NCBI GenBank assembly: GCA_018302685.1
Contig: JAGVZK010000009.1
Coordinates: forward strand, 1 to 34,321
Source of the DNA: Candidatus Woesearchaeota archaeon
Lineage (GTDB): Archaea; Nanobdellota; Nanobdellia; SCGC-AAA011-G17; GW2011-AR20
Reading direction: 5' to 3'
DNA length: 34,321 nucleotides
The notes beneath the pieces were generated by a model that saw only the letters and a program-made list of their open reading frames with translations, ran no database searches and was not told the DNA's origin. Made by a program: the position numbers and the translations under genes. Position 1 is the first letter of the stretch; every line of letters begins with the position of its first letter. Below are positions 8,879-31,234 of the stretch, in pieces.

Positions 8879-9550
8879 ATGAAAACTTATCAAAATCTGA
8901 CGATTCTTGGAACATCCCACATATCCAAAGAAAGCGTTGAATTAATTGGAAGCTTTGTTGGCAAGAACAAGCCAGAAATCATTGCTGTTGAGCTTGACAA
9001 GAGAAGATTAGTGGGCTTATTGAGCGAATCAAGAATGAATTTTAAGGACATTTTTGAGTGGGGCGTCGGTCCATTTTTAATAGGAATTATCGGAAGCTGG
9101 ATTCAGAAGAAACTTGGGAACATAGTCAATGTCAAGCCTGGCTCTGATATGTTAAAAGCTGTTGAAATGGCCAAAAACAATAATCTGAGGCTTTCTTTGA
9201 TAGACCAGGATGCGAGGATTACGCTGAAAAAACTGGTCAAAAACTTTTCGTGGAAAGAGAAGGGCAATCTGCTTTATGACTTAACGTTGGGGATGGTTTT
9301 CAGAAAAAAACCGATGAAGAGCTTTGACCTGAAAAAAGTCCCTTCAGGCAAATTAATCCAGGAGTTGCTGGAGATTATCAGGGGAAGGTATCCCTCAATC
9401 TACAATGTCCTGATTGAGGAGAGGAATTATGTCATGTCAAAAAATTTATATAAACTCATGAGCAAGTATCCTGATAAGAAAATACTAGCTGTTGTTGGTG
9501 CAGGCCATGAAGAAGGGATTTTTGAAATCATCAAAGGAATTAAGGCATAG
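8879..9550 (+). CDS. TraB/PrgY/Tiki-superfamily protein
   Basis: Family hallmarks present are ILGTSHISKESV near the N-terminus, AVELDKRR, and AVVGAGHEEGI near the C-terminus. The length is 223 aa. Confidence 0.8.
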   Translation: MKTYQNLTILGTSHISKESVELIGSFVGKNKPEIIAVELDKRRLVGLLSESRMNFKDIFEWGVGPFLIGIIGSWIQKKLGNIVNVKPGSDMLKAVEMAKNNNLRLSLIDQDARITLKKLVKNFSWKEKGNLLYDLTLGMVFRKKPMKSFDLKKVPSGKLIQELLEIIRGRYPSIYNVLIEERNYVMSKNLYKLMSKYPDKKILAVVGAGHEEGIFEIIKGIKA

Positions 9551-10277
9551 CCTTTTTGCTGTTGTCTTTCTTGCCATTATATTTGGATTCAATGATCCAA
9601 GTGATGTGTTTACCCTGAGTTCTTGGCTTGGCAACCTGTTAATAATATTGGTGTTGGCGGCAATCACACTCTTTATACACATCATCTCTTCCAAACTGGC
9701 GGCCAGCCATTTTGATCAGAAGGCTGAATTAAGAATCTGGGGCATGGAGAAAATAAAATTTAATATTCTTGGGATGATTAAGGTCAATTCAAAAATTGAC
9801 TGGAATATTCTGGGCTTCAAGGTAAAATTCATTCCCTTTGGAATACTAATCGGCCTGCTTCTTACACTAATGTCGATGGGAACTTTTTACTTTACTTCAT
9901 TGACAACAATCGTCCTTAATAAAACCCAGAGAATAGGGGATGAGTATCTTTATCTTAGGGAGAAGAACGAAGCTCTCATCTATGTCTGGAGTTTAGCCGG
10001 AAATCTTGCATTGATTGCGATTTTCAGCCTTTTGGAGATTCATCAAGGGGTTGTCATAGGAAGTTATTTTGTTCTGTGGAGCCTGCTCCCAGTTTCTGAT
10101 CTTCTTGGGGCGAAGATATTCTTCAACAACAGAATACTGTATGTTTTCTTTTTAGTGTTTATACTGCTCTTTTTGCTGTTGTTAGGAATAATTAATCTGG
10201 CCTGGCTGGTTGTAATATGCCTTGTTTTTGCATTTTTGATAACTCTTTGGTACTTTTTAAAAATAGAATATAAATAA
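9507..10277 (+). CDS. polytopic membrane protein; M50 (site-2 protease)-like with a degenerate active site
   Basis: The sequence has FIHIISSKLAASHF where M50 has HExxH (HIISS at 9678-9692). A later LLPVSDLLGAKIF resembles the NxxPxxxLDGG motif. Possible starts are TTG 9492/9495, GTG 9498 and ATG 9507, and all of them overlap the traB 3' end. Confidence 0.5.
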   Translation: MKKGFLKSSKELRHSLFAVVFLAIIFGFNDPSDVFTLSSWLGNLLIILVLAAITLFIHIISSKLAASHFDQKAELRIWGMEKIKFNILGMIKVNSKIDWNILGFKVKFIPFGILIGLLLTLMSMGTFYFTSLTTIVLNKTQRIGDEYLYLREKNEALIYVWSLAGNLALIAIFSLLEIHQGVVIGSYFVLWSLLPVSDLLGAKIFFNNRILYVFFLVFILLFLLLLGIINLAWLVVICLVFAFLITLWYFLKIEYK

Positions 10278-12621: not shown

Positions 12622-13608
12622 TCACGCTAGCCCTCTTTTTTTCAGTGTAACAAGTTGATATAAGTTAAATGCCATACATTTGAACATTTCTTTGATGCTC
12701 ACGCGTCCGAGTGTTTTTACAAATGTTCTTCCTCCCTTAAATATTCTTTTTATTACAGCGTACTGTCGTTCTCCTGGTGCTCGTATTCGTGATATTGCTT
12801 TGTTATAGAGTTGTTCTCCGCCATTGAGCTTTTTGTTTTTTGTTGCTTTCTTCATTGTCTTATCAAGAACATTGCCTGCGGCAATGTTCGCTCCAGCATA
12901 ACCTTTGTCGCGGTATGCTGCAATATCTCCATCTTTAATAAGATCTATCTGGGAATCATGAAGTGATGCAGTTGTGACTTTGTATGACCGTATGAGATCA
13001 TAGTCAGCATCTATTTTCGTATGGTTTTTGTATCCATAATGTACTTGCCCATGTTTGATACTGAAGCTTCCATCATTGTCCATATGACTTTTTTGTTGTT
13101 CTGTGTACTCAATAGTTTCCCCTTTCTTTTCTGCTTTTTTTTCTATGTAATGTCTTTTTCTTCCAAGATCAGCCTCTATGAAAGTGGCATCTTGGATTAC
13201 ACCTTTTTTAATCTCGTATCCTTTCTTATTGAGTTGTCGTTGTACTTCCTTCCATATTCTTTGTTCAGCACGAGAATTTCTAAGTCGTTCCCTTATCTTC
13301 CAGACCGTTGAAAAGTCTGGAATATTCTCGGGAAAGTCAAGGAAGTTTCTGAATGAAAGACGATCATGGCACTGAAATTCTAGCTCTTCATCGCTAAGAT
13401 TATACCACGCTTGTAATAGCATAACACGAACAACAATAATCTCATCAGTATGTGGCCTTCCACCGATTATTGGATTGTCATGGAATACGCTACTAACTAT
13501 TGGAATGAATGGTTTCCAATTGAACTGTTCTTTCATAATTTTAAGACGATCACCTAGCCCACTTACTTTCTTGTATTGTTCTTGAAGAATAAATTTGTTA
13601 AAACTCAT
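12622..13608 (-). CDS. IS5-family DDE transposase
   Basis: The N-terminal InsH-like region reads GGRPHTDEIIVVRVMLLQAWYNLSDEELEFQCHDRLSFRNFLDF...PDFSTVWKIRERL. Candidate DDE residues sit in DATFIEAD, YRDKGYAG and ERQYAVIKRIF. Confidence 0.9.
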   Translation of the reverse strand: MSFNKFILQEQYKKVSGLGDRLKIMKEQFNWKPFIPIVSSVFHDNPIIGGRPHTDEIIVVRVMLLQAWYNLSDEELEFQCHDRLSFRNFLDFPENIPDFSTVWKIRERLRNSRAEQRIWKEVQRQLNKKGYEIKKGVIQDATFIEADLGRKRHYIEKKAEKKGETIEYTEQQKSHMDNDGSFSIKHGQVHYGYKNHTKIDADYDLIRSYKVTTASLHDSQIDLIKDGDIAAYRDKGYAGANIAAGNVLDKTMKKATKNKKLNGGEQLYNKAISRIRAPGERQYAVIKRIFKGGRTFVKTLGRVSIKEMFKCMAFNLYQLVTLKKRGLA

Positions 13609-14606: not shown

Positions 14607-15146
14607 TTAGTATTTAAGGTTTGTTATTGTGGAGGCTCTGTATGCCTCCAATATTTCATATTTGGCGCCGTCCTTTGACAGGATGCTTTTCATTAATTCG
14701 AACGAGTTTATCCCAAACTTTAATTTTTTAACTTCTGCCTTCAGCTTTTCTTCAAACATCTTTTTATCTTTTATTGACTTTATCCTAGCTAAAGTTATGT
14801 GAAATGAAAAATCATGAATGTTTGGAAATTCAATCACCTGCTCGTCTATTTTCCTGGCCAAGCTAAGGACTTTCTCGTTTGGCTTTATGTTAACCCACAA
14901 TACCCTGCTGTTAAAGTGCCCAAGTTCATCCAATGAAGTTTCAAATGAACTAAACTTCACGCTTGACAGCCTCTCCTTTATCTCCTCTAGTTTGTCTTCT
15001 TTTATTTCACCAAAAAATTTCATTGTTATATGATACTTGCTTTTTGCTGTGAAATTGAATTTTCCAAGGCCCCTGAATTCGTCTTTCAGCTCAAATAAAT
15101 AGTCCTTGACTTGCTTGGGGAGGTTTATTGCTATGAAGAGTCTCAT
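14607..15146 (-). CDS. thpR: RNA 2',3'-cyclic phosphodiesterase / 2'-5' RNA ligase (2H family)
   Basis: It has two H-x-T-x motifs (YHITMKF and FHITLAR), starts MRLFIAI, and is 179 aa long. Confidence 0.85.
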   Translation of the reverse strand: MRLFIAINLPKQVKDYLFELKDEFRGLGKFNFTAKSKYHITMKFFGEIKEDKLEEIKERLSSVKFSSFETSLDELGHFNSRVLWVNIKPNEKVLSLARKIDEQVIEFPNIHDFSFHITLARIKSIKDKKMFEEKLKAEVKKLKFGINSFELMKSILSKDGAKYEILEAYRASTITNLKY

Positions 15147-15352
15147 GGTGAGTGATTAATTGTCTTTGCTGTTATACTATTTTTAGATAATAACTTCCCA
15201 ATGTCTTTTAAATCAAGGCAATAAACAATCTTTCCTTTAAACTCATTAGTCGTCCTTGAGAAAGATTTTGCAAAAATTATGTAATTTTTATTTCTATTCC
15301 ACCATTTTATTTTTTTTGCCATTTCTTTTAGTTTATTCAAAATTCTCAACAC
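15143..15352 (-). CDS. small basic hypothetical protein
   Basis: Its stop overlaps the thpR start as ATGA (15143-15146), which suggests operon membership between tyrS and thpR. The start is uncertain (GTG 15352 or ATG 15322). No recognisable motif was found. Confidence 0.4.
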   Translation of the reverse strand: MLRILNKLKEMAKKIKWWNRNKNYIIFAKSFSRTTNEFKGKIVYCLDLKDIGKLLSKNSITAKTINHSP

Positions 15353-15398
15353 ATTGGCATTTTCCTGCTATTTGCATTCCTCAAATAAAATTTCCATT

Positions 15399-16403
15399 TT
15401 ATTTGTAAGCTTTTTTATATAGGATGTGCAACTCTTTGTTTCCTCTGAAGTTTTTTAACAATTCGTTTATTTCTACGGCAACAGCATTCTTCAAGTCTGA
15501 TGGATGCAATTTTTTATCCACAAAATCTTTTTCTATTTCTTTATAATTAGAATACTTTACATCTCCTCCGAATTTTTTTGGCCTTTCAACAACAAATTTT
15601 TCTTTTTTATCCTCTTTTAACACCATTATAAAATATTGCAACAAAGCCATTATCCCATTATTTGGATCTCCTTCGGCGCACTCGGCATTATTCACCTTTT
15701 TTCTTACTATTTCCTCATCATTTAATAAATCAATTTTTGTGGATTCAATGCTTGAACTCATCTTTTCCCCAATTAATCCCCGGATCATTGGGGACATTAT
15801 TTCTACTCTTTGTTTATATCCAATTTTGGGAAGATTTTCTCTCGCATAAACCATTATCTTTCTCTGGTCTAATCCTGCAAATTGGATGTCAGTTTTTAGA
15901 TATTCTTCATCCAATGCCTGCATTAATGGATAAATGAGATTCCCTAATTTTGGGTTATCAGACATTTTTACAACTTCGGAAGCTGCTTTTTTGCAATCAT
16001 GAATGTTTGAGATCATACTTAATTTTAAAATATCATTGAGATAATTCCCATTAAGCTGCAGATTGCTGCCCTTTACAAATTCCAACTTTTTTATGTTTAC
16101 TCCAATTGTTTTCAGAATAGTTATTATTGCTCTTTGATAGTATTCGAATCTTGCCTCCAAGATGTCCCAGGGAACTCCGTTTAGTGCCGCATGAAGATCT
16201 GCTATCAGTATCTTAACTTTTAATCCCGCCCTTAGAAAATCTGCAATCTTCAGCATGTGGAAAAAATAAGCTATTGAAATACTTCCTGTGGGCATGGTTC
16301 CCCAATAAACAGAGATTTCCATTTTTTTCTTTAATAGTTCATTTAATTCTTCTTCCATTAAAATTTCGGCTGTATTCCTTTTAATCAATTCAAGCTTATC
16401 CAT
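15399..16403 (-). CDS. tyrS: tyrosyl-tRNA synthetase, archaeal type
   Basis: It is collinear with my recollection of M. jannaschii TyrRS (MDxxExIKRNTxEI..., ADLHA, NPK...IYPxMQ, KMSSS, RPxKFGGD, LHPxDLKNAVA). KMSSS is present, but the HIGH position reads SIAY. Confidence 0.9.
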   Translation of the reverse strand: MDKLELIKRNTAEILMEEELNELLKKKMEISVYWGTMPTGSISIAYFFHMLKIADFLRAGLKVKILIADLHAALNGVPWDILEARFEYYQRAIITILKTIGVNIKKLEFVKGSNLQLNGNYLNDILKLSMISNIHDCKKAASEVVKMSDNPKLGNLIYPLMQALDEEYLKTDIQFAGLDQRKIMVYARENLPKIGYKQRVEIMSPMIRGLIGEKMSSSIESTKIDLLNDEEIVRKKVNNAECAEGDPNNGIMALLQYFIMVLKEDKKEKFVVERPKKFGGDVKYSNYKEIEKDFVDKKLHPSDLKNAVAVEINELLKNFRGNKELHILYKKAYK

Positions 16404-19628: not shown

Positions 19629-20330
19629 TTGGTTGGAAGCCAAGAAGTTTTAACATGTACTGATACAGATGGTTTAAATTTTACAAGTTTAGGGCATATT
19701 TATGGTGTTGACCTTAATAATACTAATTATACAAAATATGACTACTGTAATGCCAATAACTCCACTGTATTAGAATATGGGTGTTATGAAGGCAATGTTA
19801 CATATGCAGCTCTTGTTGCACAAAATTGTGGCGACTTTGGCATGGGATGTATTAATGGCGCCTGTGTAAATCAAACACAGAACCAGACTAATGATTGTAC
19901 AGATACTGATGGGGGAATAGAGTACTTTGATGAGGGAACATTAAATGCTTTGGGTAATGATTATACTGATTTTTGCTTTGTTGCAGGAGACGATGAGTAT
20001 ATTTTGGAGTATTATTGTAGCGATCAACCCCAAATAATTTATGGAACCACTCGGTGGCTATGTCCTAATGGTTGTGAAAACGGACAATGTTTGCCTCCTA
20101 CTGAATGTACAGACTCTGATGGAGGAGATAACGTCTATGTTGCAGGAGTTACTGTTGGAAACAATGATGGTTATGGAGTGTATAGAGAAGATTTTTGTCT
20201 TGATGAGGACACTGTTTTTGAATACTTTTGTTGGGGGATTGATGTTGTGCAAGGTTCAAGAAATTGCGAATCTCAATGTGTTGATGGAGCTTGTTTGATG
20301 GTCCAAAATCAGACTGGGTTTGCACCTTAA
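19629..20330 (+). CDS. secreted Cys-rich protein with three CTD(T/S)DG modules
   Basis: Three repeats of 70-80 aa begin at 19656, 19896 and 20106, each with 6 Cys. There are many N-x-S/T sequons. The coordinates use the first canonical start (TTG 19629). The same frame is open from 19512 and encodes a signal-peptide-like IRIKKAYGIFFVLIILAAIGVSAWW upstream. Confidence 0.8.
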   Translation: MVGSQEVLTCTDTDGLNFTSLGHIYGVDLNNTNYTKYDYCNANNSTVLEYGCYEGNVTYAALVAQNCGDFGMGCINGACVNQTQNQTNDCTDTDGGIEYFDEGTLNALGNDYTDFCFVAGDDEYILEYYCSDQPQIIYGTTRWLCPNGCENGQCLPPTECTDSDGGDNVYVAGVTVGNNDGYGVYREDFCLDEDTVFEYFCWGIDVVQGSRNCESQCVDGACLMVQNQTGFAP

Positions 20331-25743: not shown

Positions 25744-26207
25744 AAATGATACCAATTTGATTCTTTATTTCCTGCAAACCAAAAATACATATCCAATGTC
25801 TTCGTCAAAGGATAATTTTTAAATTTGATTTTTTGTTGTACCTATGCCCTTATGCCCCTTTTGTATTCTTTTCCCACCTCAACCTCGCGTTTATTTTCTT
25901 TAAATTAAAAAGTACAACTTTCTGCGGATTTGAAAGGAGCTTTTGATCTTCTCTTGTTTGCGATCCCTTCGTATGACCTAAATATTCATCTAATAACCCA
26001 TAAGGAATGTCTAATATTGGGATATCTTTTGATAGTTCCTAATTTCGTCAATATCTTTGCTCTTGAGATTTGCAGGGATTATTTTATCTTATTTTATTTC
26101 TATGCAAAAAGTAGTCTCAAATTAGAACTTTATACACAAAGCCCATTTAATGCACCAGAGAAATTTAACAGAAAGCTTTATAAGCATTTTTCAAGGTTTC
26201 TATAAAA

Positions 26208-26759
26208 ATGGCAGCAAAGAAAGAAAAGAAGCTGTGGTATGAGATTCTAAGCAGCAAGGAATTCAATGAATCTCCTATTGGAGAGACTTCAACGTATGAC
26301 CTTAACAGCCTCAAAGGGAGGGTTGTCAATGTCAACCTTGGAATGCTGACCAGAGATCCAAGATCGCAGAATATCCAGATCGGTTTTGAAGTCAATGAAA
26401 TAAAGGAAAACAAATGCCATACAAGGATAAAGAACTGCTCATTGGTAAGCTCTTATATAAAGAGGATTGTCAAAGTTGGAAGAAGCAAGGCTGATGATTC
26501 CTTCATTGGAGAAAGCAAGGATAAAGTCAGATTAAAGATAAAGCCACTTGTCCTGACAAGATACAAAGTTCAGAATAAGGTTCTGACTGAGCTCAGAAGG
26601 ATGATAAGAGGAGAGGTTTTGGATTACCTTAAGAAGGAAGATGCTGACAAGTTTATTTCTGAATTGATATATAAGAAGATTCAAAAAGAGCTTAAAGGAA
26701 AGCTCAGCAAAGTTTACCCAATTGGGACTTTTGAGTTCAGGATAGTTCAGAGGCTTTAA
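26208..26759 (+). CDS. rps3ae: 30S ribosomal protein S3Ae (eS1)
   Basis: It starts MAAKKEKKLWYEILSSKEF, continues LKGRVVNVNLGMLT, and ends KVYPIGTFEFRIV. At 183 aa, the layout fits archaeal S3Ae. Confidence 0.85.
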   Translation: MAAKKEKKLWYEILSSKEFNESPIGETSTYDLNSLKGRVVNVNLGMLTRDPRSQNIQIGFEVNEIKENKCHTRIKNCSLVSSYIKRIVKVGRSKADDSFIGESKDKVRLKIKPLVLTRYKVQNKVLTELRRMIRGEVLDYLKKEDADKFISELIYKKIQKELKGKLSKVYPIGTFEFRIVQRL

Positions 26760-26805
26760 TTCTTTAATGGATAATTATATATACAAATAAATTATACAAC
26801 ATATT

Positions 26806-26937
26806 ATGACTGAGAATTTATTGCATTTGGAAATGAAATGTTGTTCTATGTTATGGAAATGTCCTGAAGAAGACAAAAGGAAGAAAGTTTACAAACTTAT
26901 TAGTCCAGAAAATGCAGTAGGAGAATTAGAAGAATGA
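26806..26937 (+). CDS. 43-aa Cys-containing mini-ORF upstream of the helicase-nuclease gene
   Basis: The hand translation is MTENLLHLEMKCCSMLWKCPEEDKRKKVYKLISPENAVGELEE. A TATA-like ataattatatata lies about 20-35 nt upstream of its ATG, and the ORF ends 21 nt before the helicase start. There is no family assignment. Confidence 0.3.
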   Translation: MTENLLHLEMKCCSMLWKCPEEDKRKKVYKLISPENAVGELEE

Positions 26938-26958
26938 GAAGCGAAAATGAGATAGACT

Positions 26959-29946
26959 ATGGTGAAACATCTAAATTCAATTGAAGAATTTCGGTCACTA
27001 TTGAATTATTATATATCTTGTTTAGAGAAAGAGGATATGTTATCACTTACCTTTAACTTTAGATTAGATGGCAAAAAATTCCATTCGAATATTTTCAAAA
27101 AAGAACAGTTTTTCTCGCATAAAAAAGAACAAGTTATAATCAAGAAAACTCCTGAAATTGAAAATATTTTCAAAGACTATAAACTTCTTCAAAGAGATAT
27201 ACCCATTTTTTATGGTTATCCTTTGTTTATGGATTCCAATGGAAATGTCAGTCCTATTTTCTTTGTTGAAATATTAGATTTTGAGGAAAGAGAGGATTCA
27301 ATTATTTTTACTAAAGAATCTGTAATTCCAGAATTTAATCACTACATCTTAACTCAAAATAATTATAACTTAGAAGAAATAAATAAAATTCGTTCAGAAA
27401 TAGGAGAAGAAAATGATTTTGCTATTAAGCTTCATAAAATAATGGAATTGCTTAATCTCAATAAAAACATCTCTTCTGAACTTGAACAAAAACCACTAAT
27501 TTTAAGACCATCGTACCAATTAATAAACAAAGCAATTTTATATTTTGGTGGAAGGATGGGTTTTACTAACGGGTTAGTAGATGAATTACAAAAACTAAAA
27601 AAATTATCTCAACACCAGTTAGAATCAACATCATTAGGAATTTTATTTAATAAAGAAAAAAATGGAATTTCAGAGAACAAAAAAGATATTTTAGAGATTT
27701 TCAATCTAAATGAATCGCAAGAAGAAGCAGTTAAAAATACTTTTTTAAGTGATATTAATGTCATTACCGGACCTCCAGGCACAGGAAAATCACAAGTAGT
27801 TCTTAATATGGTTGCTAATGCTGTTTGGAATGATAAGACTGTCTTATTTGCAAGCAAAAATAACAGGGCAGTGGATGTGGTAAATGAGAAACTTAAGACA
27901 ATTTTATCCAGAGACCTAATCATAAGAATGGGTTCCAGTAAACACAGAAAGAATGCTAAACTACAGATTCACAAACTCTTTCAAAACAAAGATTCCTTAA
28001 AAATATCTTCTATTCTCGAAGACGACAATAAAAAAATCAACAATATTAAAAATGAGATAAATTCTTTTAAAGAACAATTAGAAGGTATGTCTAAGACTAA
28101 TGAAGAAATTGAAAAACTACAAAATAAAGCCGATAGTTTGGCAAAGGAGATTCCAGAAAAACTCTATAACCTTTGTAAATACAATGAGTTCAATTCAATT
28201 GATAAATTTAAATTAGAAAGTGACATTAAAAACAATTTTGAGTACGCAGGGTTTCTCAAAAAATTAATAAGAACTGTTATTCCTTATTTTTACAAGAAAA
28301 AAGAACAAGAACTATTTAAAGTATATTATGATAAGTTAAATGAAGAGTTTAGAAATTACTTAGACAAAAATATTCAACTTTCTTCTGACGAAATTAGAAA
28401 ATCATTAATGTGGATTTTAATTTTTAAACAAGTAGATTTATTTAAAGAAGATATTGGTAAATTGAAACAAAAATTATCAAAATTAGATTCTGTTTATAGT
28501 GTACAGTTAAAAATAGAAAAATTAAGAGAACAGAGAATTAAGACATCTAGAAACATATTTGAAAGTTATTGGTTCAAGAAATTAAAGAAAACTTCACCCC
28601 AAGATGAAAACCATGTTTCTAGATATATTGATGCGTCTGAGAAATTGGAAAAATACATTGAGAATTATTCTTTGTGGAAACAGTTAGTAGGAGAACAAGA
28701 AAGCGAAATTCAAGAATTGTTATCTTTCCTCCCAATTTGGGTTGTAACGAACTTATCAGCAAAAAAGAGTCTTCCCTTAAAAGAAAATCTTTTTGATTTG
28801 TTAATTATTGATGAGGCATCACAATGTGATATCGCTTCTGCTTTGCCATTATTTTATAGAGCAAAACAAGTTGTAATTATTGGTGATCCTAAACAATTAA
28901 AGCATATTTCATTACTTAGAGAAACAGAAGATAAAAAAATTGTATCTCAAAATAAAATTTCTGAGTTATACTTGGATTATGCTTATAGTAAAAATTCTCT
29001 CTACGATATTGCAGAAAGAACAATCAAGGGTAGGGATAAATCACCAATTTTACTAAATCAACATTATCGCTCCTACAAAGACATCATTAATTTTTCCAAC
29101 GAGTATTTTTATGAGAAAAAATTAAACATAATGACTGATGAAAGCAAATTGATTCCTGATAAAATTCACCCAAAGGGGGTTAAATGGGTTGATGTTTGTG
29201 GTAAAACTAGCCAAACTAAAAGCCCGTACAACAAAGAAGAAGCAATAGAAATAATAAAAATTCTCAAAAGTTTTAATAAGTCAGATTTAAAGAAAATCTC
29301 TTTTGGAATTGTAACTTTGTTTAGAGCTCAAATGGAATTAATTGCTGATACGATTAAAAAAACTAAAGAATTAAAAAATATGGATGTTACAGTAGGGACC
29401 GCTCACAAATTTCAAGGAGATGAAAAAGACATAATTCTCTTTTCACCAGCAATATCAAAAAATATAAAACAAACAACACTAGACTGGGTTCATACAACTA
29501 CACAATTGCTTAATGTAGCTATTACTAGGGCAAGAAGCGTTCTTATTATTATAGGTGATAAGAAAAAATGTTATGAGGTAGGGGGTTTCTTAAAGGATTT
29601 AGTAGAATATGTTGAATCCAAAAAACAGTTGGATGTTAATTTTGATTCTCCTGTAGAAGATAAACTATTCAAAAAATTAACTAAGGAAGGAATTAAAGTT
29701 TTTCCTCAATATGAAATAAAGATAAGAGGAAAAAAACATTATCGACTTGATTTTGCTTTGTTTATAAATAATAATAAATATGATATTGAAGTAGATGGTG
29801 ATAAATCCCATACTCAAAAAATTGAATCTGATATCTTACGAGACATTCATCTTAGAATTGAAGGATGGAAAGTAAGAAGATTTCAAGCTGGTAAAATTTA
29901 TGATGATATTGATGAAGTGATAAAAGAAATAAAAAGATTGTGTTAA
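26959..29946 (+). CDS. Upf1/DNA2-like SF1 helicase fused to a C-terminal DUF559/Vsr-type PD-(D/E)xK nuclease
   Basis: Helicase motifs are Walker A ITGPPGTGKSQ, Walker B LIIDEASQC, motif III VIIGDPKQL, LNQHYRS, GTAHKFQGDEKDII and NVAITRAR. The C-terminus reads QYEIKIRGKKHYRLDFAL...YDIEVDGDKSH...D..RD..L...GWKVRRF. The N-terminal region of about 260 aa is unassigned, and a coiled-coil insert of about 270 aa lies between Walker A and Walker B. Confidence 0.88.
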   Translation: MVKHLNSIEEFRSLLNYYISCLEKEDMLSLTFNFRLDGKKFHSNIFKKEQFFSHKKEQVIIKKTPEIENIFKDYKLLQRDIPIFYGYPLFMDSNGNVSPIFFVEILDFEEREDSIIFTKESVIPEFNHYILTQNNYNLEEINKIRSEIGEENDFAIKLHKIMELLNLNKNISSELEQKPLILRPSYQLINKAILYFGGRMGFTNGLVDELQKLKKLSQHQLESTSLGILFNKEKNGISENKKDILEIFNLNESQEEAVKNTFLSDINVITGPPGTGKSQVVLNMVANAVWNDKTVLFASKNNRAVDVVNEKLKTILSRDLIIRMGSSKHRKNAKLQIHKLFQNKDSLKISSILEDDNKKINNIKNEINSFKEQLEGMSKTNEEIEKLQNKADSLAKEIPEKLYNLCKYNEFNSIDKFKLESDIKNNFEYAGFLKKLIRTVIPYFYKKKEQELFKVYYDKLNEEFRNYLDKNIQLSSDEIRKSLMWILIFKQVDLFKEDIGKLKQKLSKLDSVYSVQLKIEKLREQRIKTSRNIFESYWFKKLKKTSPQDENHVSRYIDASEKLEKYIENYSLWKQLVGEQESEIQELLSFLPIWVVTNLSAKKSLPLKENLFDLLIIDEASQCDIASALPLFYRAKQVVIIGDPKQLKHISLLRETEDKKIVSQNKISELYLDYAYSKNSLYDIAERTIKGRDKSPILLNQHYRSYKDIINFSNEYFYEKKLNIMTDESKLIPDKIHPKGVKWVDVCGKTSQTKSPYNKEEAIEIIKILKSFNKSDLKKISFGIVTLFRAQMELIADTIKKTKELKNMDVTVGTAHKFQGDEKDIILFSPAISKNIKQTTLDWVHTTTQLLNVAITRARSVLIIIGDKKKCYEVGGFLKDLVEYVESKKQLDVNFDSPVEDKLFKKLTKEGIKVFPQYEIKIRGKKHYRLDFALFINNNKYDIEVDGDKSHTQKIESDILRDIHLRIEGWKVRRFQAGKIYDDIDEVIKEIKRLC

Positions 29947-30099
29947 ATAATAATTTATTATAATATTACGCTGTTCAAGCCAACCTAATTTTAGGATGCC
30001 TGACTTTAGAAGTGTATTCTTTAATATATATGTTAGAGTATAGTTCCTGCGGACAACCATGCGCGCCAGATATATAAACGAAATTTTCTTTTTATTGTC

Positions 30100-30741
30100 A
30101 TGTTTAAGATTGATGAGGATTTAGCTGAAGATGTGGGAATCCATATTGGGGATGGAAGCATGAATTTTTATTCTGGAATTGGATGTTACACTGTAGCATG
30201 TCATTGGATTGACGATAAAGAGTATATTGATAGTTATGTTTCTAAATTAATTGAAAAGATCTATGGTATTAAACCAAAATTAAGAATTTGGTCCAAAGGA
30301 ACTTACGGTTTTAGAATTTATTCAAAGGACGTTGTAAATTTTAAAAGTCAAGTTTTAAATCTTCCTTTGGGCCCAAAGAAAAACATTAAGATTCCAGAAA
30401 TCATTTGTAAAGATGAGAGATTACTAAAATCTTGTTTGAGGGGTTTGATTGATACTGATGGTTGTTTATATTTGGAAAAAAAGTATGGAAAATTATACCC
30501 GAGAATAATTTTTACAAATACATCTAAACCTTTAGTCTTTCAGGTTAAAAATTGTTTAGAAAAATTTGGTTTTACAGTTTCCTTACAAGTTAGAAACCAT
30601 GATAATAAAAATTGGAATATCACATATATTCTTTGTACTAGAGGTTTTAATAATTTAAAATTGTGGATGAGATTAGTAGGTTTTAGTAATCCTAAGAATA
30701 TAATGAAGATAAATTTATTGAAAGAAAGGAAATATTTTTAA
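30100..30741 (+). CDS. free-standing LAGLIDADG-family endonuclease (two motifs)
   Basis: Motif 1 is LAEDVGIHIGDGSM and motif 2 is LRGLIDTDGCLYLE, about 100 aa apart in a 213-aa protein. A TATA-like atatataaacg lies about 20-28 nt upstream of the ATG. Confidence 0.75.
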   Translation: MFKIDEDLAEDVGIHIGDGSMNFYSGIGCYTVACHWIDDKEYIDSYVSKLIEKIYGIKPKLRIWSKGTYGFRIYSKDVVNFKSQVLNLPLGPKKNIKIPEIICKDERLLKSCLRGLIDTDGCLYLEKKYGKLYPRIIFTNTSKPLVFQVKNCLEKFGFTVSLQVRNHDNKNWNITYILCTRGFNNLKLWMRLVGFSNPKNIMKINLLKERKYF

Positions 30742-30768
30742 AGAATTCTTATTGTTTAATCCTTATAA

Positions 30769-30876
30769 GCCTCTGTAGCTCAGTGGTAGAGCAAATTTCA
30801 AAGGAAAGCTCATCTGCCTTGTATGAGTTAGGCCCAAGTAAGCAGTAGGCCGGGGGTTCAAATCCCCTCGGAGGCT
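30769..30876 (+). tRNA. tRNA-Thr(TGT) with two BHB introns (30795-30813 at position 27/28; 30824-30840 at position 37/38)
   Basis: The acceptor stem is GCCTCTG/CGGAGGC with discriminator T, and the D-arm is GCTC-AGTGGTA-GAGC. The T-arm is GGGGG-TTCAAAT-CCCCT. Removing 19 + 17 nt leaves 72 nt with a perfect anticodon stem ACTGC/GCAGT and loop CT-TGT-AA. Both introns sit in helix-bulge-helix-bulge motifs, detailed in the findings. Confidence 0.8.
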
Positions 30877-30889
30877 TATTTTCTATAAA

Positions 30890-30991
30890 ATGGAGCATAC
30901 ATGCATAATATGTGGAAATGAAATGATTCAGAATAAATGCAAGATTATCTGTTTAAACTGCGGTTTTACTAGAGACTGCACTGACCAATAG
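30890..30991 (+). CDS. 33-aa zinc-ribbon mini-protein candidate
   Basis: The hand translation is MEHTCIICGNEMIQNKCKIICLNCGFTRDCTDQ, with a CxxC ... CxxC arrangement. It lies between tRNA-Thr and tRNA-Val and is followed by a T7 run. Confidence 0.4.
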   Translation: MEHTCIICGNEMIQNKCKIICLNCGFTRDCTDQ

Positions 30992-31024
30992 TTTTTTTAA
31001 GTTTATTTTATTTCAATTTGACAT

Positions 31025-31096
31025 GGGCTTGTTATCCAGTGGTTAAGATGCATCCTTGACGTGGATGAAACCCAGGTTCGAATCCTGGCAGGCCCA
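31025..31096 (+). tRNA. tRNA-Val(GAC), intron-less
   Basis: The acceptor stem is GGGCTTG/CAGGCCC (one G-U pair) with discriminator A. The anticodon arm is CATCC-TTGACGT-GGATG and the T-arm is CCAGG-TTCGAAT-CCTGG. It is 72 nt long and followed by TTTT. Confidence 0.88.
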
Positions 31097-31234
31097 TTTT
31101 ACTCTCATGCTACAATTTTTTACTCTCCAAACATTTATATATTAGTTTAATACTTATTCAATAAATGGTTATTTTAACACTAATAACGATTAAAATAAGC
31201 TTCATTTGGAAAAAAAAGATTTAAAAGGCTTTAA

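Follow-up and report, generated by a model that had tools for sequence, protein, structure and literature searches.

We describe here a single foreign gene inserted in the chromosome of a DPANN archaeon, immediately behind the rpS3Ae stop codon, on a 34,321-nucleotide (nt) stretch of DNA from a Candidatus Woesearchaeota archaeon (contig JAGVZK010000009.1; the window, by which we mean this whole stretch). The gene encodes a 995-amino-acid (aa) protein with a superfamily 1 (SF1) helicase followed by a C-terminal DUF559/Vsr-type endonuclease with conserved catalytic residues, it was acquired by insertion, and it is a member of a pan-prokaryotic family that moves between genomes. We lean, with modest confidence, towards the explanation that the acquired gene is an accessory, stand-alone guard against viruses or plasmids that works by a motor-nuclease mechanism. 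An earlier inspection of the letters and translations of this DNA, the sequence-only reading, had proposed a helicase-nuclease fusion in a horizontally acquired defence-type or selfish block, and most of its structural claims stand, although the extent of the block does not.

The 995-aa open reading frame (ORF) had been credited with a complete SF1 motif set, and all of the quoted motifs are present at the places given for them (GPPGTGKS at residue 271, DEASQ at 618, GDPKQL at 642, HYRS at 702, QGDEKD at 819 and VAITRAR at 853) and are invariant across 51 homologues. The annotated start is right, since the N-terminal residues MV(K/H)... line up with the first residues of the homologues. The proposed fusion of a helicase to a DUF559/Vsr nuclease is likewise borne out by Pfam, with AAA_11 (1.3e-29), AAA_12 (1.2e-32) and DUF559 (residues 926-993, 30.2 bits against a cut-off of 20.6) all above cut-off. 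MTES_1575, the variant of the Vsr restriction endonuclease that is fused to helicases, reaches 34.1 bits over residues 900-992 against a cut-off of 38.2, which is passed at 39-59 bits in bacterial and other family members. The nuclease region carries RLDF at 929, EVDGDKSH at 944 and GWKV at 969, and the PD-(D/E)xK-type catalytic residues are intact, as had been supposed; this set (D931, E944, D946 and H951) is kept in 79 of 79 family members of at least 46% identity.

The full-length AlphaFold model is confident, with a predicted local distance difference test (pLDDT) score of 86 and a predicted template modelling (pTM) score of 0.77. By sequence and modelled fold the helicase core is predicted to be Upf1-like SF1B, and Foldseek matches it to SETX/Sen1, Upf1, IGHMBP2, Aquarius and Dna2 at E values of 3e-22 to 1e-16. 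The coiled-coil insert of about 270 aa that the sequence-only reading had described is present, but is modelled as an all-helical block of about 260 residues (327-587) made up of long helices. Homologues of 1110-1440 aa carry additional residues, up to about 445 aa, within this insert at about positions 425-450; these were considered as inteins, and that reading was rejected because BLAST places the additional residues within the helical insert, where some are internal duplications. The N-terminal domain, which had been left unassigned, stays so: residues 1-245 have no Pfam assignment, and although the domain alone is modelled confidently (pLDDT 84, pTM 0.72), it has no match in Pfam, NCBIfam or the PDB, the best Foldseek hit to a PDB fold having an E value of 0.075 and a template modelling score of 0.13.

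The insertion is delimited by comparison with related contigs, which were fetched through the protein index, a scan of GTDB genomes for rpS3Ae having returned nothing. The closest rpS3Ae proteins outside the strain have 75-77% aa identity and lie on six contigs (L005-L010), all of which keep the order SRP54, RIO kinase, rpS15, RecJ-like protein and rpS3Ae on one side and retain tRNA-Thr, tRNA-Val, a 61-aa helix-turn-helix protein and a 625-aa protein on the other. The helicase-nuclease is absent from the rpS3Ae site and from the fetched contigs in all six, and in three of them (L008-L010) tRNA-Thr follows about 50 nt beyond the stop codon of rpS3Ae. Homology of the window to the relatives' sites breaks off at 26758, where the alignment of rpS3Ae (74% nucleotide identity) ends, and restarts at about 30002, giving an insert of about 3.24 kb (26760-30001). 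The right junction, defined by local alignment to L006, L005 and L008, holds a second copy of the last 8 nt of rpS3Ae with its stop codon, GACTTTAG, followed by the ancestral spacer, AAGTGTATTCTTTAAT, and this rpS3Ae-end relic is the only solid junction signature. A 10-nt direct repeat, ATTCTTTAAT, shared with 26759-26768 was tried as a target-site duplication in the window and rejected, as 293 of 2000 shuffles (15%) reached it. The 5’ flank (26760-26958) resembles none of the 5’ flanks at 14 related loci. In contigs that come from two further samples and are 99.9% identical to the window, rpS3Ae, a 43-aa mini-ORF and the helicase gene are arranged in the same way; the insertion is stable in the population.

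The block had been called visibly AT-rich from hand counts, and windowed composition confirms this, with G+C of 0.26-0.29 over 26.5-30.5 kb against 0.38-0.44 nearby. The G+C at third codon positions (GC3) is 0.21 in the helicase gene against a mean of 0.431 (standard deviation 0.067) for the 25 other ORFs of the window, about 3.3 standard deviations below, and is 0.22 in the adjacent LAGLIDADG gene. A second AT-rich dip at 14.5-16.5 kb (G+C 0.31-0.32) holds genes for a LigT-like phosphoesterase and a class I (Tyr/Trp) tRNA synthetase (14607-16403, minus strand), and because these are housekeeping genes, low G+C alone is no proof of foreign origin. The absence of the gene at the site in six relatives, its deviant composition, and the differing neighbourhoods of its homologues together make horizontal acquisition well supported and very probable, as the sequence-only reading had held.

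That reading had also drawn the mini-ORF and the LAGLIDADG endonuclease gene into the block, raising the alternative of a multi-gene module in which the helicase-nuclease acts with one or both of them. The mini-ORF (26806-26937), Cys-containing, does exist as an ORF, is preceded by a TATA-like box and followed by the helicase start, and is called as a gene in the two other samples. However, its peptide matches only itself and the two 99.9%-identical contigs (L134 and L135), whose sharing of it is uninformative at that identity, and no homologue of it turns up in the fetched loci, whether upstream of the at least 14 related helicase genes or elsewhere; the ORF stands, but a partner role is unsupported, as it is confined to contigs of one strain. 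The LAGLIDADG gene is adjacent and equally AT-rich, but L006 has at the same site a LAGLIDADG cassette without the helicase, 85% identical to the window in nucleotide sequence, and L005 has a diverged LAGLIDADG gene (L007-L010 have none). The cassette is therefore an older, independent insertion separate from the helicase, the two do not form one block, and we regard a multi-gene module as very improbable.

The family itself is large. More than 1200 homologues were scored, many of them full-length, and our literature search found no paper describing it. The full-length archaeal relatives (980-1000 aa) are from Woesearchaeota/Nanoarchaeota (50-81% identity), Methanoperedens (47%), Aenigmarchaeota (43%) and Thermoplasmatota (40-42%), while full-length bacterial relatives have 27-33% identity over residues 14-992 or so, come from many phyla (including groups of the candidate phyla radiation, Dehalococcoidia, Bacteroidales, Paenibacillus, Bifidobacterium and Sphingomonadales), and share both the Pfam architecture and the unassigned N-terminus of the window protein. 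Out of 1.84 billion clusters, a profile of the N-terminal domain retrieves only 393, almost all of them about 900-1130 aa long and with the domain nearly always at or close to the N-terminus, which suggests that it occurs essentially only in this helicase-nuclease family. Among 33 of these clusters that we scanned, about half of them picked for extra N-terminal sequence, the helicase is found in 33, MTES_1575 in 21, an N-terminal WYL domain in 6 and NERD in 3. P0153 and P0162 are among the members with extra N-terminal WYL or NERD domains, and the archaeal member P0071 has a zinc-ribbon inserted in the N-terminal domain.

Neighbourhoods indicate that the gene moves between genomes. Homologues of 76-83% identity lie in neighbourhoods unrelated to one another, and a survey of 139 nearest-neighbour ORFs, drawn from 38 loci, shows no conserved partner, the commonest neighbour family occurring four times. 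The G+C content of the gene is constant at 27-30% in hosts whose flanks have 30%, 33%, 37%, 44% and 48% G+C. The window ORF has 80-83% nucleotide identity to its relatives over exactly the ORF, with homology running from 1-4 nt before the ATG to the stop codon. We also note that at the Methanoperedens locus (L003) the ORF for a Bro-N protein (9524-9991) ends 10 nt ahead of the helicase-nuclease start, and that a second contig, L004, has a 98-aa ORF in the Bro-N position.

Conserved non-coding flanks that form inverted repeats enclose the gene in DPANN relatives (L001, L002, L119-L126 and L130-L133). The 13-nt core of the repeat, GGCTCTCTCGTTA, is placed 46-59 nt ahead of the ATG, and its exact complement, TAACGAGAGAGCC, starts at the stop codon; this perfect inverted core surrounds the gene in at least eight independent DPANN loci, and the 1.65 Mb of fetched DNA contains no other occurrence of it. 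The contigs of L001, L002, L119/120, L122, L124 and L126/131 include both arms and those of L125, L132 and L133 a single one, the 5’ arm is present in diverged form in L121, and two loci (L122 and L123) have matched changes in both arms. Beyond the core the arms extend to 62-66 nt in L132, as judged against the 3’ trailer of L122 and L125, to about 110 nt in L119 (a score reached by none of 1000 shuffles), about 130 nt in L126, and about 175 nt in L123, whose contig ends inside the arm. The repeats hint at a transposon-like or invertible carrier, and such a carrier would explain why the contigs of many homologues are 3-5 kb long and stop at the arms. The flanks of the window copy (26760-26958 and 29947-30001) hold no inverted repeats above chance, nor do the Methanoperedens and Aenigmarchaeota copies have them; with homology confined to the ORF, the window copy has either lost the arms or never had them. 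An integron attC reading of the core was rejected, as the half-sites flank the ORF, with the second one upstream of it instead of downstream, no complete site follows and the core has no additional copy; Phage_integrase is missing from the 25 families that recur most often in the 139 neighbour ORFs.

These repeats give some weight to the alternative of a selfish element, in which the helicase-nuclease is the sole gene of a transposon-like unit and serves its movement or maintenance, with the window copy immobilised after loss of the repeats. The inverted cores, the long arms with their matched changes, the restriction of the core to this gene, the short arm-ended contigs, the lack of a conserved partner and the uniformly low G+C whatever the host are all in its favour. 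However, there is no transposase inside the inverted-repeat unit and no integrase or HUH domain is present, no target-site duplication was found outside the long arms of L123 and L126, the empty palindrome, CTCTCGTTAACGAGAG, does not occur in the fetched loci, the repeats are missing from the three kinds of copy noted above, and we know of no element that moves by a Upf1-type helicase with a Vsr nuclease. Moreover, defence genes are often the cargo of mobile elements, so the repeats are compatible with defence, and we consider the selfish alternative unlikely, although it is the main rival of the defence reading. Somewhat less likely again, but worth stating, is a new kind of single-gene mobile unit of about 3.2-3.4 kb, bounded by long inverted repeats and with a Upf1-type helicase, a Vsr-type nickase and a domain of unknown fold joined in its sole product, which would be spreading among DPANN archaea and, in other forms, across bacteria; the product would then be either a mobility enzyme or a transposable immunity gene with a new sensor domain.

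Comparison with named defence systems shows partial likeness throughout. The PADLOC matches are MkoC (211 bits), PDC-S37 (177), MkoA (169) and Hhe (75), all of them partial, and the NCBIfam matches are ProA (NF058533, the best, 182.9 bits against a cut-off of 1500) and Hhe (NF042953, 116.8 against 2000); eight other family members, archaeal and bacterial, have the same partial pattern of defence-model matches. The protein shares with Hhe (PADLOC PDLC02194) the plan of an SF1 helicase followed by a C-terminal Vsr/DUF559-type nuclease in one chain, and likewise has no obligatory partner gene, but the Hhe profiles have about 1800-1900 positions against 995 aa here, about half that size, and the match is restricted to residues 586-807 or so. 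Hhe also has an N-terminal DUF4011, which has no hit in the window protein at E <= 0.01; the latter has a different N-terminal domain and an archaeal source. With ProA, window residues 589-992 (the second helicase half and the nuclease) align to positions 1281-1700 of a 1903-position profile, most of which has no counterpart in the window protein, and our literature search found no paper on ProA as a phage-defence protein. Mokosh (MkoA/MkoC) has the Upf1-like helicase core in common, again as a partial match (profiles of 1112-1607 positions, including PDC-S37, whose match also takes in part of the nuclease region), but Mokosh has a phospholipase D (PLD) nuclease, either fused or encoded by an adjacent gene, whereas the window protein has no PLD domain and no PLD partner gene, its neighbours are rpS3Ae and the LAGLIDADG gene, and the PLD family is not among the 25 most frequent families of the surveyed neighbours. 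By these profile comparisons the protein is not a member of Hhe, ProA or Mokosh, and as all of the matched NCBIfam cut-offs are failed and the PADLOC matches are partial, it could define a new compact relative of Hhe.

A housekeeping helicase for DNA repair or RNA surveillance, equivalent to Dna2, Upf1/Sen1 or IGHMBP2, is a further alternative, suggested by the structural neighbours of the core and by a match of 157 bits to the IGHMBP2 family model TIGR00376. The motif set and the RecA1/RecA2 fold are indeed the same as in Upf1, Sen1/SETX, IGHMBP2, Aquarius, Dna2 and ZNFX1, but the Upf1-like SF1B helicases lack both a C-terminal Vsr-type nuclease and this N-terminal domain, and, unlike a single-gene insert, they are conserved factors with housekeeping or immune roles. 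Dna2 has an N-terminal Cas4/RecB-like nuclease with an iron-sulphur cluster, whereas the nuclease here is C-terminal and Vsr-type; no Dna2/Cas4 Pfam hit is found in the window protein, only its helicase part matching Dna2. The TIGR00376 score is below the cut-off of 349 bits, and the protein does not group with the housekeeping Dna2/Upf1 orthologues. Since the gene is also missing from the site and from the fetched contigs of all of the closest relatives, is foreign in composition and has conserved synteny nowhere, we think a housekeeping role highly improbable.

Other single-protein systems offer precedents for the plan. Nhi, Hna and HmaA each combine in one protein a helicase as sensor or motor with a nuclease as effector (PMC11232893), but in Nhi the nuclease is HsdR-like and N-terminal and the helicase is of the DUF2075 type, and Hna and HmaA have SF2 (superfamily 2) helicases (PMC11232893); PADLOC gives no match of the window protein to the Nhi, Hna or HmaA models. 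We propose, and infer from the domains alone, that the Upf1-like motor would load onto single-stranded DNA, or onto intermediates of replication or recombination, and travel 5’ to 3’ along the loaded DNA, that the tethered C-terminal Vsr-type endonuclease would nick or cut the DNA being tracked, and that the N-terminal domain and helical insert may form the sensing or gating part.

A defence role for the helicase-nuclease is plausible and is the best reading, although it is, like the substrate and the gating, an inference. It is favoured because the gene is accessory and mobile and has no conserved partner, because family members show defence-type neighbours, WYL and NERD fusions and prophage carriage, and because the best library matches are defence models. 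The surveyed neighbours include AAA_15/AAA_21 (PtuA/AriA-like) four times, mad3 three times, GmrSD_N, NERD, Fic, SLFN_AlbA_2 and NsnB twice each, and BrxL once, and toxin-antitoxin pairs also occur next to the gene; close archaeal loci adjoin an MmeI-like methyltransferase, ParE/MazE, PemK, PIN/MazE, an NTP_transf_2 pair and a DUF87 ATPase. IMG/VR contigs that carry bacterial homologues encode terminase, integrase and repressor, and the phage and plasmid collections gave partial, helicase-level matches only. Several observations weigh against defence. The matches to named defence families cover only the helicase or the helicase and nuclease core, and the NCBIfam ones are far below their thresholds; defence-type domains make up about 10% of the neighbours in a survey that lacks a matched control, and the neighbours include many housekeeping genes; the inverted repeats are no less in keeping with a selfish element than with a defence gene; and in a Thermoplasmatota-type branch of the family (41-44% identity) the nuclease catalytic set is degenerate, so the nuclease is not always needed.

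The protein is an uncharacterised, widespread and compact representative of the single-protein helicase-nuclease kind, with an architecture of about 1000 aa and an N-terminal domain of unknown fold that spans archaea and many bacterial phyla. The genomes of DPANN archaea are tiny, with few immune systems recognised in them, and a stand-alone helicase-nuclease that has been acquired and kept would be a candidate for their resistance to viruses or to the mobile DNA of their hosts. The packaging of the relatives’ genes in inverted repeats also provides a route to study how single defence-type genes move between genomes.

Features of the insert and its surroundings in the window, and neighbours of the gene at related loci
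Feature	Coordinates	Strand	Remarks
rpS3Ae	26208..26759	+	Host gene, left boundary of insert; Pfam 9.4e-34
5’ flank of insert	26760..26958	+	Strain-unique; TATA-like AATTATATATAC at 26774-26785; 43-aa ORF 26806-26937
Helicase-nuclease gene	26959..29946	+	ATG start, 995 aa; sole conserved gene of insert
N-terminal domain	26959..27693	+	Residues 1-245, alpha/beta, family-specific
RecA1, first part	27694..27936	+	Walker A GPPGTGKS (residue 271)
All-helical insert within RecA1	27937..28719	+	Residues ~327-587; length variable across family
Rest of RecA1 and RecA2	28720..29628	+	DEASQ, GDPKQL, HYRS, QGDEKD, VAITRAR
C-terminal DUF559/Vsr-type endonuclease domain	29629..29943	+	Pfam DUF559
3’ flank of insert	29947..30001	+	Strain-unique
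Right junction	30002..30025	+	rpS3Ae-end relic and ancestral spacer
LAGLIDADG cassette	30015..30741	+	Not part of helicase insert; 72-nt leader and 213-aa ORF (30100-30741), Pfam LAGLIDADG_3
tRNA-Thr(UGU)	30769..30876	+	Host gene; Rfam; two short insertions (introns), aligned to intron-less orthologues
tRNA-Val(GAC)	31024..31097	+	Host gene
Neighbours in L001			MmeI-like methyltransferase, HD protein, ParE/MazE, PemK
Neighbours in L002			Hypothetical proteins, ABC transporter genes
Neighbours on P0046 contig			NrdD, stand-alone DUF559 protein
Neighbours in L121			NTP_transf_2 pair, DUF87 ATPase
Neighbours in L003 (Methanoperedens)			Bro-N protein before gene; FtsZ and YcaO nearby

The LAGLIDADG cassette has features of its own. 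Its 72-nt leader (window 30015-30086) recurs with 84% identity at L006 1267-1339, before a second, longer LAGLIDADG/HTH_5 gene, and may be a shared promoter or mobility signal of such cassettes. The intron-bearing tRNA-Thr(UGU) downstream was missed by ARAGORN and detected with Rfam. In the window and in L006 this tRNA gene has two inserts, the first (about 19 nt) following position 26 and the second (about 16 nt) following position 37, and in L005 it has three. The inserts are found exactly where a free-standing LAGLIDADG gene adjoins (window 30100-30876, L005 6618-7353 and L006 9812-10588), and the tRNA is uninterrupted in the four loci without the gene (L007-L010). This looks like a homing endonuclease gene that travels with introns that break its target site.

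The window also carries archaeal housekeeping genes, namely those for a Hef-type ERCC4 helicase, FtsY, SRP54, rpS15 and a RecJ/Cdc45-like protein. The host had been labelled DPANN-like from the sequence, and SRP54 bears this out, with all of its named relatives, at 63-72% identity, being Woesearchaeota or Nanoarchaeota. An IS5-like transposase gene (12622-13608, minus strand; DUF772 and DDE_Tnp_1) has a low GC3 of 0.30, and a 233-aa ORF at 19629-20330 (plus strand), which has no Pfam match, has a GC3 of 0.23, as low as that of the helicase, and could be another foreign gene or a miscalled frame. Between tRNA-Thr and tRNA-Val a small ORF (30890-30991) encodes a CxxC...CxxC zinc-ribbon peptide, MEHTCIICGNEMIQNKCKIICLNCGFTRDCTDQ, without a homologue in the related loci. 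The relatives also vary in the stretch from the RecJ/Cdc45-like gene to rpS3Ae (window 25744-26207), with an ABC ATPase and a 163-aa ORF in L006 (6931-9086) and other small ORFs upstream of rpS3Ae in L008-L010, and the near-identical contigs L134 and L135 both break at window position 25759.

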